DNA of 34,209 nt from a virus (taxonomy: Duplodnaviria > Heunggongvirae > Uroviricota > Caudoviricetes): IMG/VR virus record IMGVR_UViG_2648501321_000004. One strand, written 5' to 3'. Shown here one piece after another: positions 3,191 through 32,841 of this stretch. Below the pieces are notes generated by a model. It was not told the origin of the DNA. It searched no databases and saw only the letters and a list, made by a program, of their open reading frames with translations. The stretch's first letter is position 1; the number at the start of each line of letters is the position of its first letter. Made by a program: the position numbers and the translations under genes.

Positions 3191-6100
3191 TACCGATATG
3201 CTCCACTTAACCGACCACCATCACGGGCCTGCTGTTGCATAAAGTCCGCTGCCGCTTTTTTCCCGAGGTCATAAACCACCTTCAGGGCAGCCGGACCTAT
3301 CTGCCCGTTCGTGCCATCGTTATTGATCTCGATGTTGTACTGCGGGGCAAACATCGCCATACCTGAACCACCAATATCCGCCACAACCCCCAGCTTACCG
3401 TCAGCACCACGACGCAGTGGCAGAATGGCTTCAGGTCCCGCTTCCCCCATCACACCCGCGCCTTTTGCAAAAGCAAAAAACGTCGGACGGTTAACCACCG
3501 TGCCACTGTAACGACTCAAATCAGCAGACTGATAAATCCCCCCATTGGCATTCAGGGAAAGGCTGCTGAGATCAAATCCCAGTACACTGCCAATCCCTTT
3601 TATCGATTTCATCATGGTTGCCTGCGCCAGGATTTTCGCCATATCTGACAGCACAGAAGAGGTGAAGGATTTGAAATTGAGTTTGCCGGTAGTGACAAAA
3701 GTTGCCAGGCCATTTCCCATGTTGCTGAAGGCTGACGAGAACACCTGTTCTGCTGTTCCTGCCGTATTATCTGCATCCACGGTAAAATCCTGAAATGCAC
3801 GCAGGACTCCGTTTTTCCAGTTACCCTGCACAACTTCAAGCTGTTGCCAGTAACGGCGATTCTCATTCAGTTGTCGGTTCAGGCTCTCCGTCAGCGCCTG
3901 CTCGGCCTTTCTGTAGTCATCCGTGTTATATGTCCCTTTCTGCTCACTATCCCGCCTCAACTGCTCCAGCTGTTGCTGGTATTTCTGGCGAAGACTCAGT
4001 TGTACCTGATATCGCTGCCGCTGCTGATCACCCATACCCACCGTGGCGATATCCAGGTCATGTTGCTGACGCTGAGCGCGCTCTTCTTCAGCCAGTTGAC
4101 TGGTCAGCTGAATTGTTTTTTTCTTCAGCTCGTTGAGTGCCGTCTGTTTCTGAAGCTCCTGCTGTTTTACATCCAGCAGCGTCAGTGCCTGAATCAGTTC
4201 ATCTTTACGGGCCAGCACACTCTTTTCATCTGCCGTCAGTTTTTTCCCGTCCAGGTCGCTGATGCGCTGCTGCAGAGCCAGAAGCTGTTTATGCGCTTCT
4301 GTCATCCTTTCCGTGGCAATGCCTGCTGACTGTCTGGCAGCAGCAATCTGTCCTTCCACCTGTGCCTGTTGCTGACTGTACTGCAGCAATAACCGGGTGG
4401 CCTCATCATTACGGGTTTCGCGTGTTTTTTTCTTACCGGATGCCTGGGCTTTCTCGTAACGTTCATTTTCACGTTGTATCGCCGCATCCCTGACAGCCTG
4501 ATCGGCGTACTGCATGGCATTAATACGCGCAATTTCACGCTGATGTCGTGCTGCTTCCGTTTCATTCATCCGGTTCAGTGCAGCATTTTCAGCATTACGG
4601 CGTTTCTGTTGCTCCTGATAATTCCGCTCTGCCTGCTCTTTTGCATCCTGCAAATCCTTCTGGCGTTTTTTCTCCTGAAGATCGTTAAGACGCTGCTGAT
4701 CGTATTCAACCTGAGAAGATGATGCCGTCCAGGGGAGTCTTTTCGCCCGCGACACTTTCTCCTGCAAAGTGGCAATCTGCGCATCCAGCGAATCTTCACG
4801 ACCAATATTCATGGCCGCATCCCAGAACTGCTTCCACCAGTCAGACAAAGTTTGCAGCGTACTGCCCAGCGCATTGAGGTTATTATCAATATCCGCAGTA
4901 CGCCGACCGGTTTCCTCTGCCAGTGCAGACATGGCTATCCGTGCCGCATCACTGGACCGCCCCTGCTCTCCAAGGACGCGTATCTGCTCAAGCTGAGTGG
5001 CAGTAAGAAAATGCAGCTCATTGTCCAGAGACTTCGCGGCATTTACAGGATCATCCTTCAGCCGCTTAAACTGATTTATGGTATCGCTGACCGACTGGCC
5101 AACCGATCGCTCCATCTGTGCGGCAGCTCTCGCCACCATACCGATATCGTTTCCACGAAATGCACCACTCCCCACCACCTGAGCCAGCGCACCGGCTGCA
5201 GCATGTTGCGTGATACCATTCCCGGAAATAGCACGACTGAGCGTCCACAGCTGCCCGGCAGTGACTCCGGCATAATGCCCCGTCAGCGACAGCTGGCGGT
5301 TAAATTCTTCCCCCTCCTTCTGACCGTCATACCAGGCTTTACCCAGGCCATAGACAGCCGCGGCAATACCGCCAATAACCCCGCCAAGCATCATGCCTTT
5401 CGGTGACATCAATGTGTCTATCCACCCGGCACGGTTAGCCAGCGTTATTCCGGATCCCCTCAGCGCCCCTAAATTGCCGCGGGCCAGTTCACCTATCAGA
5501 ACGCCTATCTCCTGACGGGCCGCTGCACTTTTCAGCCCCAGCGAATGCGTGGCTTTTCCTGCCTGCTCCATTTTGCGGATATACACTTCTGCAGCACTGC
5601 TTACCCCCAGCTGGGCAGCCTTAGCACGAAGCAACTCAGAAGAAGAAAGATTCTGGCGGGTTGCCTGCTCTTTAAGCTGACGGATAAACGCCACTTTCTG
5701 TCGGGTAGCCTCTTCCTCAGCCTGTGTAAGAACACGGGTTTTCGCCGTAACCTCAGAAATCAGCGCCAGATAATCCTGCTGACCAATCCCGCCACTGTTT
5801 CTGGCCTGTCGGATCTGCTGCTGAATACGCTGTAATTCCTGCAGACCCGCACTGGCCTGTTTCACACTGTCAATCTGACGATAAAACGCAGCAGCCGCTT
5901 TATCCTGAGCCTCCGCCAGAGCCATGGCCTGCGCCTGTTCCTCGCGCATTTTCTGGCTCAGCGCCTCCATACGCTGGCGGGTTTTCTCCACCTCGCGGGC
6001 CATGCGTTCATGAGCCTGTGCGTTCTTCTCCACCGTCTGCGCATGGACGGATGCGGCTGTTGCAGCCGAAGACGCCGCCTGCGTTGTCTGCCGGGCGGCC

Positions 6101-26486: not shown

Positions 26487-27040
26487 GCGTTAGTTTCTCC
26501 ACAACCAGAAGCAATCGACGCCACGACGCCCGGAGCTGCACACTCGCGGGCGTCATTACTTTCTGAAACGCAAAAAATTTTGTAGACAAGTGCTGCATGC
26601 TCCTGCAGCTTCGAAATTGAGAGGTACAGCTCGTCGTTAATTGCTGTCTTCTCATGCGGTTCCACTACACCGTCTTCGATTGCCGAACGAATCTGTTTTG
26701 AATAACTGCCGATCTGTTCAATGACTTCCAGTAAACGCTGGTTAATATCGGCATTGTCCACATCCTCGACGTCAGGAAGAGACACAAAGACGCCATTTGC
26801 AGACTGCGCCACAGCGTCGGCAATGAAGTGAGTGCCACCAGCACGTTGTAAAATCATTGCCCATCCCAGCGGGAAAATCTGATCGCCATCGGCACGAAGG
26901 CGGTTAAATAATGCGTTCTCTGTTACATCCAGCCACTCAGCAGCTTCAGCGTAACCCCCCGGCAACGCCGCGATAGTTTTTCTGACAGCTTTCACGTACC
27001 ACTCAGGCTGTTTTTCCACTTTCCAGTGATGATTACCCAC
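26483..27040 (-). CDS. CII-like / YdaT-family regulatory protein (tentative)
   Basis: 185-aa ORF immediately downstream of cro and overlapping it by 8 nt; GTG start with AGGAGG 6 nt upstream. Family assignment is from memory. Confidence 0.45.
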
Positions 27041-27293
27041 GGCTTACCTCCTGTTCCTGTGGTTTAAACCCATTCTGGTTTTGGCTAGATTGAAAACGTG
27101 CCGGATAAAGAATCTGCATTTCGCTGATTTCATCCTTAAAAAAATTGGCCAGACGTTCTGCAAGATCGATAGATGGAATTTGTTCCAGTCTTTCAATACG
27201 ACTCAGCGTCGCTGGATTGACCTGAACGCCAGCAGCAACATGCTGCAAAGTAAATCCGTGCGCCTTACGCACATTCCGTAATGGTGATTGCAT
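27033..27293 (-). CDS. cro: Cro-like HTH repressor
   Basis: 86 aa, HTH segment GFTLQHVAAGVQVNPATLSRIE; divergent from cI across a 97-bp operator region; GGAGG Shine-Dalgarno. Confidence 0.75.
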   Translation of the reverse strand: MQSPLRNVRKAHGFTLQHVAAGVQVNPATLSRIERLEQIPSIDLAERLANFFKDEISEMQILYPARFQSSQNQNGFKPQEQEVSRG

Positions 27294-27390
27294 ATTACCT
27301 CCACATATTGCGTGATAAGCATATTATTTCACGCAAATATTTTGCGCAAGTTGATTTGCTTAACGCGCAATAAAGAAATGTAATAAACGC
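27294..27390. promoter_or_regulatory. OR-like operator/promoter region between cro and cI (pR, pRM)
   Basis: Repeated palindromic TTGCG(T/C)...CGCAA half-sites; pR-like -35 TTGCGC and -10 TAATAT on the minus strand; cI ATG has no Shine-Dalgarno, consistent with a leaderless pRM transcript. Confidence 0.6.
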
Positions 27391-28083
27391 ATGAACATAG
27401 GAAACCGAGTCAGACAACTTCGCCAGGCGAAGAACATGAAAATCGCCGATCTCGCTGAAGCAATAGGAGTGGATGCGGCGAATATCTCACGCCTGGAAAC
27501 AGGTAAGCAGAAACAATTCACTGAACAAGCCCTGAGTAATATTGCCAGGAGCTTAGGTGTTGATATTGCTGATCTCTTTACCTCAGACGTCAAAAGTAAT
27601 ACTGTATGTAAAAACAGTATTAGTGAGGATGTTGCGCAGGTGAAGGATGTATTCCGTATTGAAATGCTGGATGTCAGTGCCAGTGCGGGAAATGGCCTTA
27701 TCCAGGGCGGTGATGTCATTGATGTGATTCATGCCATTGAATACAGAACTGATAATGCTGTATCGATGTTTGGCGGACGGCCAGCCAATCACATTAAAGT
27801 TATCAACGTTCGTGGGGACAGTATGTGTCCAACCATTGAGCCAGGAGATCTCATCTTCGTTGATGTCAGTATCAATCAGTTTGATGGAGATGGTATCTAT
27901 GTATTTGGTTTTGATGATAAAATTTATGTCAAACGACTGCAAATGATACCTGACAAACTACTGGTGATTTCTGATAACCAGATTTACCGTGAATGGGGAA
28001 TTACCAGCGAAAATGAACACCGGTTTATGGTCTTTGGAAAGGTCTTAATCAGCCAGTCACAAACCCTTAAGCGACACAATTAA
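27391..28083 (+). CDS. cI: CI-type prophage repressor (HTH plus S24 LexA-like peptidase domain)
   Basis: N-terminal HTH (MKIADLAEAIGVDAANISRLETGKQ) and C-terminal autocleavage domain with GDSM serine motif and VKR lysine motif. Confidence 0.9.
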   Translation: MNIGNRVRQLRQAKNMKIADLAEAIGVDAANISRLETGKQKQFTEQALSNIARSLGVDIADLFTSDVKSNTVCKNSISEDVAQVKDVFRIEMLDVSASAGNGLIQGGDVIDVIHAIEYRTDNAVSMFGGRPANHIKVINVRGDSMCPTIEPGDLIFVDVSINQFDGDGIYVFGFDDKIYVKRLQMIPDKLLVISDNQIYREWGITSENEHRFMVFGKVLISQSQTLKRHN

Positions 28084-28103
28084 CCCTTACCTCCTCATCA
28101 ATT

Positions 28104-28127
28104 AGCCACCCAAAGGTGGCTTTTCAT
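28104..28127 (+). terminator. Rho-independent terminator after cI
   Basis: AGCCACC-CAAA-GGTGGCT hairpin followed by TTTTC. Confidence 0.6.
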
Positions 28128-28135
28128 TACCCTTT

Positions 28136-28200
28136 AAATTGCATATCTCGCAACAAAAACACTTGCATAATACGCAACTTCATTTTATCTTTCTTTCCAG
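28136..28200 (+). promoter_or_regulatory. Candidate OL/pL region
   Basis: Two 15-bp sites TTGCATATCTCGCAA and TTGCATAATACGCAA resembling the OR half-sites; possible -35 TTGCAT and -10 TATCTT. Confidence 0.35.
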
Positions 28201-28602
28201 ACAAACAAACAAGGTACTAACAAAATTTGGTTGTAACACGGCGTATGGCACATGCGTCGTTAGCGGTCTGGGGACGTTAAAGGGGACAATCCACTCCTTG
28301 CTCGGGCAAACAAACCAGGTAGCCGGAATGTGCAAGTCAATGATGATGCTGATAAGACGCCTAACCAGCGTGGCGATTCGGTTTGACGCCTGGGAAGAGA
28401 CCAGGGTGCAACGATGAGGGCATTTATGGAGCCGCGACAAAGTGTGGTGCCGTAACTGGCTAAGTGCTCTCAGCGTTGTGGTAATCCGCGAAATGGCGCG
28501 GCGGTAAGTATGGCGGGGTTACTATTTCCCCGTTGAGGACACCGGATTGTCAGGTTGACCATACGCCTGAGTGACAACCCCACCACAACAGCCACTGCTT
28601 TG

Positions 28603-28648
28603 GCGGTACCAGTTTGTACCCTTGCTTCCGGCTGGTACCGCTCTTTTT
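28603..28648 (+). terminator. Strong hairpin plus T-run inside the non-coding leader upstream of the early-left operon
   Basis: Perfect 10-bp stem GCGGTACCAG/CTGGTACCGC with a 19-nt loop followed by TCTTTTT; overlaps a boxA-like CGCTCTTTTTAC. Confidence 0.5.
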
Positions 28649-28785
28649 ACAAAACAGAGAAAAGCATCACCGGACGACGGGCTCATAACCCAATCCATCC
28701 GGGCGGCAGTCACCGCAGGTGTTCTTCTCTGTTTTGTGGAGAAACCAACCGACCTTGCAGGGTCGATATGATGAGGAGCAGCAAA

Positions 28786-29148
28786 ATGGCTAGCGAACGC
28801 AGTACTGATGTGCAGGCATTTATCGGGGAGCTGGACGGCGGCGTATTTGAAACCAAAATCGGCGCAGTTCTCAGTGAAGTCGCTTCAGGTGTGATGAACA
28901 CGAAAACCAAAGGTAAGGTCTCACTCAACCTGGAAATCGAACCATTTGATGAGAACCGTGTGAAAATCAAACACAAACTCTCATATGTTCGCCCGACTAA
29001 CCGCGGGAAAATTTCCGAAGAAGACACCACCGAAACGCCGATGTATGTCAATCGCGGTGGTCGCCTGACTATTCTGCAGGAAGACCAGGGACAATTACTG
29101 ACTCTTGCCGGTGAACCTGACGGAAAACTCCGCGCAGCAGGTCATTAA
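28786..29148 (+). CDS. yfdP: YfdP-like hypothetical protein (120 aa)
   Basis: ATG at 28786 with AGGAG upstream; first of five co-oriented genes whose lengths (120, 274, 178, 120, 101 aa) match the CPS-53 yfdP-yfdT series as recalled. Confidence 0.55.
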   Translation: MASERSTDVQAFIGELDGGVFETKIGAVLSEVASGVMNTKTKGKVSLNLEIEPFDENRVKIKHKLSYVRPTNRGKISEEDTTETPMYVNRGGRLTILQEDQGQLLTLAGEPDGKLRAAGH

Positions 29149-29213: not shown

Positions 29214-30038
29214 ATGTCTCAGAACTTAGACGCAACCGCAATTAATCAAATCCATGCCCTTATTTCTGCTCAGGGTGTTAATGAAATTATCAGTAAGATT
29301 GGTGCCGATGCTGTGGCATTGCCTGAGAATTTCCGCATTCATGATCTGGAAAAATTTAATTTAAATCGCTTCCGTTTCCGTGGTGCGCTTTCCACTGCCA
29401 GCATCGATGACTTTACCCGTTATTCTAAAGATCTTGCAGATGAAGGCACCCGCTGCTTTATCGATGCCGATAATATGCGAGCAGTCAGTGTGCTTAACCT
29501 GGGTACTATTGATGAACCAGGTCACGCAGATAACACCGCCACTCTCAAACTGAAAAAGACAGCACCGTTCTCTGCCCTGTTGTCTGTTAACAGCGAGCGT
29601 AACTCCCAGAAGTCACTGGCAGAATGGATTGAAGACTGGGCCGACTACCTTGTGGGCTTTGATGCTAATGGTGACGCTATTCAGGCAACAAAAGCGGCTG
29701 CGGCGGTCCGTAAAATCACGATTGAAGCAAACCAGACCGCTGATTTTGAAGATAATGACTTCAGCGGCAAACGCTCCCTGATGGAGTCTGTCGAAGCGAA
29801 GACCAAAGATATTATGCCAGTGGCATTTGAATTTAAATGCGTTCCGTTTGAAGGTCTGAAAGAACGTCCATTTAAATTACGCCTCAGCATTATCACTGGC
29901 GATCGTCCGGTACTGGTTCTGCGCATTATTCAGCTGGAAGCGGTGCAGGAAGATATGGCTAACGAATTTCGTGATCTGTTTGTTGAGAAATTCAAAGACA
30001 GCAAAGTAGAAACCTTTATTGGTACTTTCACCGCCTGA
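29214..30038 (+). CDS. yfdQ: YfdQ-like protein (DUF2303 family, 274 aa)
   Basis: 274-aa ORF with GAGGA Shine-Dalgarno; size and neighbourhood match YfdQ. Confidence 0.65.
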
Positions 30039-31056: not shown

Positions 31057-31361
31057 TGACCACTTTTACCGACAAAGAACTGATTAAAGAAATTAAAGAA
31101 CGTATCAGCAGCCTTGACGTGCGAGACGATATTGAGCGCCGTGCTTATGAAATCGCACTCCTATCTCTGGAAGTAGAACCAGATGAACGCGAAGCTTATG
31201 AATTATTCATGGAAAAGCGTTTTGGTGACTTAGTAGATCGTCGGAGAGCAAAAAACGGCGATAACGAATACATGGCATGGGATATGACTCTCGGTTGGAT
31301 CGTCTGGCAGCAACGAGCTGGTATCCATTTCTCAACAATGTCACAGCAAGAGGTGAAATAA
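31056..31361 (+). CDS. yfdT: YfdT-like hypothetical protein (101 aa)
   Basis: Start overlaps the yfdS stop (TAATG); GGAG upstream. Confidence 0.55.
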   Translation: MTTFTDKELIKEIKERISSLDVRDDIERRAYEIALLSLEVEPDEREAYELFMEKRFGDLVDRRRAKNGDNEYMAWDMTLGWIVWQQRAGIHFSTMSQQEVK

Positions 31362-31711
31362 TGGAGCCATACAGCCTCACACTCGATGAGGCCTGTCATT
31401 TTCTCAAGATATCCAGACCGACTGCCATTAACTGGATACGCACAGGGCGTCTTCAGGCAACACGCAAAGATCCCACTAAGAATAAATCTCCTTACCTCAC
31501 AACACGACAAGCCTGCATTGCGGCTCTTCAGTCTCCGCTGCATACTGTCCAGGTGAGCGCGGGTGATGGCATAACAGAGGAAAGAAAATGTCACTCTTCC
31601 GCAGAGGTGAAATATGGTACGCCAGTTTCACATTGCCGAACGGTAAAAGATTTAAACAGTCTCTTGGAACAAAGGACAAAAGGCAGGCGACAGAACTCCA
31701 TGACAAGCTAA
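31361..31711 (+). CDS. xis: Excisionase (P22 Xis-like, 116 aa)
   Basis: 116-aa ORF ([31 protein letters not shown]...) immediately upstream of and overlapping int; start overlaps the yfdT stop (TAATG). Confidence 0.65.
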
Positions 31712-32765: not shown

Positions 32766-32841
32766 TGGTGCCGATAATAGGAGTCGAACCTACGACCTTC
32801 GCATTACGAATGCGCTGCTCTACCAACTGAGCTATATCGGC
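32766..32841 (-). tRNA. thrW: tRNA-Thr (anticodon CGU), thrW-like; prophage attachment site
   Basis: Minus strand reads GCCGATATAGCTCAGTTGGTAGAGCAGCGCATTCGTAATGCGAAGGTCGTAGGTTCGACTCCTATTATCGGCACCA: 76 nt cloverleaf with CGT anticodon, GTTCGA T-loop and CCA end. Confidence 0.9.

Follow-up and report, generated by a model that had tools for sequence, protein, structure and literature searches.

Homology to the DicF precursor and to sRNA-17 at a modular, structured RNA locus in the immunity region of a lambdoid prophage

DicF, among the oldest known bacterial small RNAs, has been regarded as an oddity of defective prophages, and phage genomes were reported in a 2016 study to lack DicF-like sequences. 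RNase E is required for the 53-nt form of DicF and RNase III for the 190-nt form, no internal promoter having been found (bioRxiv 10.1101/2023.04.14.536235). Dependence on Hfq is also known for DicF. A second small RNA, sRNA-17, comes from an mEp460-like prophage of Escherichia coli K1 RS218, where 5'/3' rapid amplification of cDNA ends (RACE) and Northern blotting define a 193-nt RNA that goes up in stationary phase (PMC7719688). Here we compare both RNAs with positions 28128..28785 of a 34,209-nt stretch of Caudoviricetes DNA (IMG/VR record IMGVR_UViG_2648501321_000004), the whole of which is referred to as the window. The positions cover the exact gap from the terminator of a cI-like repressor gene to the start codon of yfdP, in the immunity region of an SfV/SfII/mEp460/cdtI-type lambdoid prophage. 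We consider it probable that this gap is the promoter-proximal non-coding part of the early-left operon and that its product is a multi-domain RNA, not a protein. From 5' to 3', we describe its modules as B, C, D and E.

Inspection of the 3' part of the locus reveals a DicF-like small RNA combined with an intrinsic terminator, module D (28590..28648, + strand). It consists of a single-stranded 13-nt linker (28590-28602), a hairpin (28603-28641) with the 19-nt loop UUUGUACCCUUGCUUCCGG, and a U-tract (28644-28648). The hairpin is formed by a perfect 10-bp inverted repeat (28603-28612/28632-28641) followed by UCUUUUU, and the terminator folds at -21.5 kcal/mol (z -3.1), a stability equalled by 0 of 200 shuffles. 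A preliminary description, made from the letters of the window, had placed a strong terminator at 28603..28648; the repeat, the U-tract and the z score bear this out, and a simple terminator scan missed D because of its 19-nt loop. The boxA-like string noted in the same description is also present (CGCTCTTTTTAC, 28639-28650), but a boxA role does not hold for it: the string is the 3' arm of the D terminator plus the U-tract, no boxB hairpin comes after it, and it is not conserved, with CCGCTC at this position in 9 of 34 distinct family members and CCGCCC in 22 (CGCCCUUUUU in most relatives).

In the K-12 Qin prophage, as in the window, the RNA lies downstream of a cI-like repressor and an operator-controlled early promoter and upstream of early genes, and a long helix stands just upstream, where RNase III makes the 190-nt end in Qin. 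DicF and D share the 5' arm start UUUGGCGGUAYCAGUUU and both end in an intrinsic terminator. At the start of the hairpin, UUUGGCGGUAUCAGUUU in DicF and UUUGGCGGUACCAGUUU in the window (28598-28614), 16 of 17 bases are identical, and an intermediate variant combines a GGUACCAG arm with a DicF loop. In contrast, the loop and 3' arm of D differ from those of DicF, the 13-nt 5' seed of DicF (UUUCUGGUGACG) is absent, and D has no ftsZ complementarity. The upstream settings differ as well: Qin lacks the B core and has the protein genes ydfABC ahead of the leader, while in the window the B core directly follows the predicted early-left promoter (PL). One D variant, on viral contig L045, has the loop AGUUUCUCUCC, a perfect 11-nt antisense match to the ftsZ Shine-Dalgarno region that is longer than the match of canonical DicF.

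Module D is located 3' of a conserved precursor leader in an operator-controlled early prophage operon. This leader, module C (28475..28589, + strand), is a cassette present as a single copy in the window (nhmmer E 3.6e-35), and its positions 28475-28581 are ~90% identical to the stretch directly 5' of DicF in Qin (L004 3001-3107). C also matches, more distantly, the annotated 'dicF-like region' of phage P1 behind the C1-controlled promoter Pban. The cassette is closed by the stem GUUGUGGU/ACCACAAC, which across the family reads GUUGUGGY/RCCACAAC and covaries; the fold further contains an invariant hairpin CCGCG/CGCGG, a variable hairpin and a long covarying hairpin, GGAUUGUCA/UGACAACCC. A possible pseudoknot pairs GUAUGG with CCAUAC, for which the phage P1 version is GCAUGG/CCAUGC. 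Among 77 distinct C sequences from viral contigs, a hairpin and U-tract always come next with varying sequence, the types being canonical DicF, that of the window, one whose loop is antisense to the ftsZ Shine-Dalgarno region, that of phage P1, and others. A tRNA-like reading of C was rejected, with nothing found by ARAGORN or the Rfam tRNA model. A C homologue of 86% identity occurs in Actinobacillus phage vB_Apl-pPE4 (PP818812.1, 6147-6262), whose listed Pasteurellaceae host is unexpected against an otherwise enterobacterial range.

Upstream of C lies module B (28222..28481, + strand), a conserved structured RNA domain of ~250 nt, also single-copy in the window (nhmmer E 1.6e-71). It contains five covarying helices, pseudoknot included. 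Helix P1 is a hairpin (28238-28247/28251-28260), followed by P2 (28267-28271/28315-28319), P5 (28357-28360/28368-28371), P6 (28389-28393/28401-28405) and the long helix P7 (28409-28421/28466-28478), and the pseudoknot pairs the loop AACC (28363-28366) with GGUU (28380-28383). Three stretches are invariant, namely ACGGCRUAUGGCACAUG, GGUAGCCGGAAUGUGCAAG (28318-28336) and GGCGAUNCGGUKUGAC, and the intervening helices vary. Aligned with MAFFT, 26 distinct B cores have 95.5% of cells paired and both-sided changes in 12 of 28 pairs, which 0 of 500 shuffles reach and where slid controls are at most 48% paired. An anchored alignment of 38 B variants has 94.6% of cells paired and 12 of 24 pairs changed on both sides, with 0 of 500 shuffles reaching it and at most 43% in slid controls. 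The pseudoknot is 100% paired in the MAFFT set (C-G in 22 sequences, A-U in 4). Across 53 distinct variants, the P5 loop pairs with downstream GGUK in perfect correlation, either as CUAACCA with GGUUUGAC or as UUCACCA with GGUGUGAC. Two closely related Kosakonia loci, L247 and L304, differ at both pseudoknot positions, a difference that we read as an independent switch.

Helix P7, a probable RNase III site, is 13 bp long in the window and 13-17 bp across lineages, with changing sequence, preserved pairing and a variable interior. The 5' end of 190-nt DicF, counted here, falls in 'gtgcgc|ttccggttgtgg', which is the 3' strand of the P7 counterpart in Qin. In some phages, pieces resembling a tRNA T-arm (GGTTCAATTCCAG, GGTCAGTTCGATTCGGACACC) are nested within P7 (L356 SPN1S 2600-2720; L207, L218; L151, L240), and in the same set pseudo-tRNA-like cassettes (CCCGGTTCGATTCCGGG) occupy the cassette position, none of which ARAGORN calls. 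Searches with Rfam 15 at gathering and permissive thresholds, covering the window and homologous loci, gave no match over B, C or E; matches were limited to tRNA, plus DicF, C4 and IsrK in homologous loci. The 463-nt leader folds at -164 kcal/mol (z -2.1). Folding, covariance and Rfam searches had all been proposed in the preliminary description, and together they return strong covariation and nothing catalogued over B, C or E. A by-eye resemblance of B to RNase P or signal recognition particle RNA motifs was dropped, as no covariance model supports it. Module B appears to be a new, uncatalogued pseudoknotted RNA domain.

The locus was next considered as coding sequence. Its G+C content is 0.50-0.56 over 28200-28800 versus 0.39-0.47 in both flanks, and none of the five local open reading frames (ORFs) matches Pfam. 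Two function-unassigned PHROG families, phrog_3651 and phrog_33599, match ORFs at 28522..28713 (- strand) and 28571..28771 (+ strand), and several phage records annotate 'hypothetical proteins' at the RNA locus, mEp460_036/037 among them. These annotations and matches favor small hypothetical proteins still encoded here, or a decayed protein gene (N, rex or other), but the two PHROG matches overlap on opposite strands, and both families look like the product of spurious ORF calls over RNA. An excess of variation at third codon positions is absent in either frame (variable sites 18/16/21 and 19/20/16), the lengths of stop-free stretches vary between near-identical homologues, and conservation instead tracks the RNA helices. 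We therefore regard a coding origin, past or present, as extremely improbable. The original picture of ~650 bp of GC-rich non-coding DNA with no convincing ORF is upheld by these tests, and a conserved coding frame, which had been named as grounds for refutation, finds no support. The ORF list, Pfam and PHROGs likewise give no arginine-rich N-like ORF in the region. Decay of an N/rex region, one of the origins first suggested, is rejected, as the locus is conserved across unrelated phages, with compensatory pair changes, a covarying pseudoknot and no codon signature.

Comparison with sRNA-17 adds transcript data. Its locus also lies between the repressor and yfdP, and B, D and E are 98-100% identical to those of the window, judged from mEp460 as the closest sequenced relative. 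The primers for full-length sRNA-17 run from CGTTGTGGTGAATG..., immediately after P7, to ...GGTACCGCTCTTTT, in terminator D (PMC7719688). The Northern probe and 5' RACE primers are antisense to the PL-sense strand, so that sRNA-17 is a PL-sense RNA, and the amplicon used for quantitative reverse-transcription PCR begins at the 5' edge of B, which indicates co-transcription (PMC7719688). In contrast to these shared parts, the ~115-nt body of the RNA is a different cassette, termed X, in mEp460 and RS218, where the window has C. Of the full sRNA-17 sequence, just the last ~70 nt (CACCACAACAGCC to the U-tract) are matched by the window, which places it among the copies keeping the 3' part alone that the sRNA-17 authors call 'degenerate' (PMC7719688). 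Their paper does not mention a DicF relationship, RNA structure in B, or modularity. The DicF-like 3' end in D, the leader ~90% identical to that of Qin and the near-identical element within a mapped small RNA support the preliminary suggestion of a small regulatory RNA. A preprint on the Pas small RNA and papers on small RNAs of enterohaemorrhagic E. coli were also consulted and concern other loci.

Transcription of the locus would start from operator-controlled sequences at its 5' end. Two 16-bp OL operators, TTGCATATCTCGCAAC (28139-28154) and TTGCATAATACGCAAC (28163-28178), are spaced 24 bp start to start, and a third copy of the same family lies in the OR region (27356-27371). Exact matches to TTGC-N7-GCAA number just three across the 34-kb window, and each of them lies next to the repressor gene, in line with the OL-like repeats recognized at the outset. 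A PL promoter (28163..28200, + strand), predicted from sequence, overlaps the second operator and comprises a -35 element TTGCAT (28163-28168), a 17-bp spacer, a -10 element TATCTT (28186-28191) and a start near 28198-28200. An analogous TTGACA/TACATT promoter is found at the matching place in the lambdoid phage mEp390.

From this arrangement, we think it likely that PL transcription is followed by processing with RNase III and RNase E to release a small RNA, and that partial termination at D attenuates the early-left genes. Once the two OL operators are free of the CI-like repressor, PL (start near 28198) would transcribe B, which ends in P7, followed by cassette C and then D, where the U-tract would stop a fraction of transcripts. 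By analogy to DicF, RNase III may cut in the 3' strand of P7 to give an RNA of ~175 nt (~28474-28648), and RNase E may cut in the 13-nt linker to give a hairpin small RNA of ~50-60 nt, which would act in trans via its 19-nt loop or the linker. Its target would be other than that of DicF, since D lacks ftsZ complementarity. Read-through RNA would carry E, then yfdP, yfdQ and the remaining early-left genes; read-through past D would thereby feed these genes, such that D would also work as an operon attenuator. Module E (28649..28737, + strand) is an imperfect long hairpin of 89 nt that begins directly after the U-tract, with 25-nt arms and a folding energy of -39.1 kcal/mol (z -6.4). Pair-keeping changes on both sides are seen in E by eye in L332 and L329. 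We consider E a candidate double-strand processing site in read-through transcripts.

Several observations weigh against this reading. The Rfam DicF model (RF00039) has no match in 27900-29000 even at E <= 10, where the Qin DicF control scores 76.7 bits and the gathering threshold is 48, and a related D in phage SPN1S scores 12.6 bits against that same threshold. D also pairs with ftsZ no better than shuffled sequences do: the duplex with the ftsZ translation-initiation region reaches -11.7 kcal/mol, against a shuffle mean of -15.4 and -19.6 for DicF, and full-length duplex folding did not discriminate. The predicted PL matches the consensus at 8 of 12 positions, is below the threshold of a consensus scan and was not called by it. 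Deletion of sRNA-17 raises yfdP ~95-fold, and the deletion used a pKD3 cassette with primers that show the D hairpin retained (PMC7719688); this rise may be an artefact of the resistance cassette and is ambiguous on attenuation. The sRNA-17 authors moreover read B DNA as an ArcA-controlled promoter, based on a shift in electrophoretic mobility shift assays (EMSA) and a threefold rise in an arcA mutant (PMC7719688), such that the 5' end of sRNA-17 could be primary. Finally, a pure role as a processing scaffold leaves the strong conservation of B unexplained.

Extended to the window, the ArcA data would make the small RNA an independent gene, as for sRNA-17, with B as ArcA-bound promoter/operator DNA and the 5' end at ~28474 as a primary start. 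The ArcA-P EMSA shift on the B fragment, the arcA-mutant rise and a 2.6-fold drop in microaerobic growth (PMC7719688) are in keeping with this, as are GTTA direct repeats in B (cGTTAgcggtctggggacGTTAa, 28259-28280). However, DNA sites do not explain the RNA-level selection in B, where pairs are compensatory and the pseudoknot covaries, and the authors' own amplicon starts at the B 5' edge. A consensus scan returns no sigma-70-like site on the + strand of 27900-29000, the homologous 5' end of DicF is an RNase III product with no internal promoter found there, and the same B precedes tRNA-Arg in other phages. Taken together, an independent ArcA-controlled gene seems rather unlikely.

In a broader, still tentative reading, B is a new class of phage structured RNA: the pseudoknotted 5' domain of mobile 'RNA operons' that have an interchangeable payload, and in which B has an active function of its own. 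As payload, these would carry a true tRNA-Arg, the DicF-leader domain or another cassette with a GUUGUGG/CCACAAC closure, and a DicF-type small RNA whose seed varies would come next. B could for example be a cis platform that recruits or modifies host machinery (RNA polymerase, RNase III/P/E) so that the payload is matured and expressed, or a stable RNA with a host or defence protein as its binding partner, and in either case not a passive leader.

A further role for B was suggested by its position, which invites comparison with the put RNAs of phage HK022. Like B, put is found just downstream of PL in a lambdoid phage without N, and has two adjacent stems with a similar 6-bp base of the first stem. 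That is to say, B (with or without C) might be a cis-acting RNA that modifies RNA polymerase, functionally replacing N and reading through D and later terminators. B lies ~25-60 nt downstream of early promoters in the window, mEp390 and SPN1S and precedes intrinsic terminators that must be passed for yfdP-int, dicB or phage P1 ban. The missing N-like ORF fits this role, as do the long invariant unpaired stretches of B, which look as if they bind a conserved partner, and the base of the P1 stem, ACGGCG/CGUCGU, which resembles that of putL stem I with a G-U at the same place. In contrast, an nhmmer profile built from putL and putR of HK022 has no match within 28100-28800 at E <= 100. B has a U where put has its essential G35, and lacks both a stem II equivalent and a 5' triplex strand. 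The put RNA acts in cis to suppress termination, by way of the beta' zinc-binding domain, and is a ~70-nt two-stem RNA (GAACGGC...GUCGGG...GGAUGA...CAAUG), whereas B is ~3x larger and has a pseudoknot. The window holds a single B and a single C, with no PR-side copy, where cro and the next ORF abut. Elsewhere, the Uetakevirus unit stands alone and ends in two terminators, and the B of phage P1 lies ~2.3 kb into its operon, after a tRNA. The preliminary proposal of an HK022 put-like element finds no support in these comparisons as regards family membership, and we judge an antiterminator function of this kind to be unlikely.

To place the modules in a wider context, BLAST was run over 5,426 complete E. 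coli genomes and 50,697 phage records. The resulting picture is a mosaic of pieces that are conserved separately. B is found directly after tRNA-Ile and before ban in phage P1, directly before tRNA-Arg(UCU) in phiV10/SPN1S-type Uetakeviruses, with its own promoter and two terminators, and, in the unrelated mEp390, right behind the repressor gene and PL. A genome scan filtered with an nhmmer profile places B in at least 12 named species, spread over 9 genera that include Escherichia, Klebsiella, Citrobacter, Kluyvera, Kosakonia, Phytobacter, Superficieibacter and Candidatus Erwinia; the pattern used on genome contigs, GGCACATG-N45-75-CCGGAATGTGC, was too loose by itself, giving 120 loci that were mostly chance and of which ~21 were real after the nhmmer filter. 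Among 120 distinct B loci, a D-like hairpin follows at most 900 nt downstream in 85, of which 38 have C, 21 tRNA-Arg and 26 another cassette, and a further 15 loci are of the phage P1 ban type. What comes after '...GCGUUGUGG' depends on the phage: the window has C there, Uetakeviruses have tRNA-Arg, and others have unrelated inserts of 100-250 nt. The inserts are each closed by GUUGUGG...CCACAAC. We conclude that DicF, sRNA-17, the phage P1 'dicF-like region' and the phage tRNA-Arg units appear to form one modular family, a link that itself appears new.

This modularity is also seen in mEp460 (L001), where identity with the window extends up to GCGTTGTGGT and resumes at CACCACAACAGCC, with just the cassette between them differing. 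Identity is 100% over 28205-28480 and 98.8% over 28581-28660. The exchange of 28475-28589 against L001 ~3340-3480 is clean, and the short inverted motif may be a recombination joint. In SfII (L002 3095-3160), a decayed start of B alone is kept (ctggttgcaacacggtgcatgtgtcgtaagcag) and is followed by protein-coding inserts, which indicates that the locus decays or gets overwritten in some phages.

The cassette exchange also bears on whether C and D act together as a riboswitch-like or thermosensing attenuator, with C as sensor and D as expression platform for entry into the early-left genes. A compact, pseudoknot-capable domain directly upstream of an intrinsic terminator and genes is what such a device would look like, and GUUG at the P7/C junction (28475-28478) has two alternative CAAC partners, 28409-28412 within P7 and 28586-28589 within the closing stem of C. 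Full formation of one of these two helices leaves the other incomplete as a result, and the choice, a possible switch, could order folding or cleavage. However, no Rfam aptamer matches, C shows no evident alternative pairing with the D stem, and DicF is documented as a trans-acting RNA. In addition, tRNA or unrelated cassettes fill the C position while D is kept, and therefore D does not depend on C. We consider a sensing attenuator very unlikely.

The surroundings of the locus are those of a lambdoid immunity region. A Cro-like gene (27033..27293, - strand) and an S24-type CI-like repressor gene (27391..28083, + strand) lie upstream, and the upstream boundary is the intrinsic terminator of the cI-like gene (28104..28128, + strand), which a terminator scan detects as a hairpin (28104-28121) followed by TTTTCATT (-11.8 kcal/mol, z -4.7). 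At the downstream end, 28750..28785 (+ strand) holds a small hairpin (28750-28765) and, for yfdP, a ribosome-binding region with GAGGAG. The yfdP gene (28786..29148, + strand; ATG at 28786) has a 120-aa product matching phrog_204 and is followed by yfdQ (29214..30038, + strand) and further early-left genes on the same strand. Where the early-left operon ends (ORFs at 31277..31711 and beyond), a tRNA-Thr(CGU) gene (32766..32841, - strand) comes shortly after an excisionase-like ORF and is probably the thrW attachment site as used by SfV/SfII-type phages. In mEp460 (L001), the antirepressor region holds a C4 antisense RNA and an IsrK-like RNA at 844-931 and 956-1032; Rfam finds neither C4 nor IsrK in the window, though the early-left RNA locus is common to both.

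These results recast the DicF precursor as one instance of a widespread modular design in active phages, among them cdtI, mEp460, Stx2c phages, P1 and Uetakeviruses, and in prophages from nine or more enterobacterial genera. In this design, the 5' domain is folded and conserved, the cassette in the middle can be exchanged and can be a real tRNA, and the small RNA at the 3' end has a targeting loop that varies between phages. The design offers a structural explanation of where RNase III makes the 190-nt DicF, ties to the DicF family an RNA implicated in the virulence of E. coli K1, sRNA-17, and provides a set of natural seed variants with which the retargeting of host regulation by phages can be studied. 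With its strong covariation support, B could join RNA-family libraries, and several 'hypothetical protein' annotations, together with two PHROG families, appear to be ORF calls over RNA.

Among known systems, the ban-operon leader of phage P1 (AF234173) is comparable to the window in that C with a hairpin terminator stands directly after the C1-controlled Pban, B is present as well, and the whole belongs to an operator-controlled early transcript. The leader also carries tRNA-Asn/Thr/Ile. In contrast to the window, the order in phage P1 is reversed, the modules are ~2.3 kb apart with tRNAs and tci genes between them, and B is without P7. Directly after B in phage P1 (L005 ~4390-4410) stands 'gattttctggtgatgac', which resembles the DicF 5' end 'aattttctggtgacg', and a DicF-like RNA may once have followed B there. 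Phage-borne structured RNAs tied to tRNA genes, or a small RNA from a tRNA trailer, are known from GOLLD, ROOL and 3'ETS-leuZ. B differs from GOLLD and ROOL in having no Rfam match, in its smaller size (~170-250 nt) and in being so far confined to phages of Enterobacterales.

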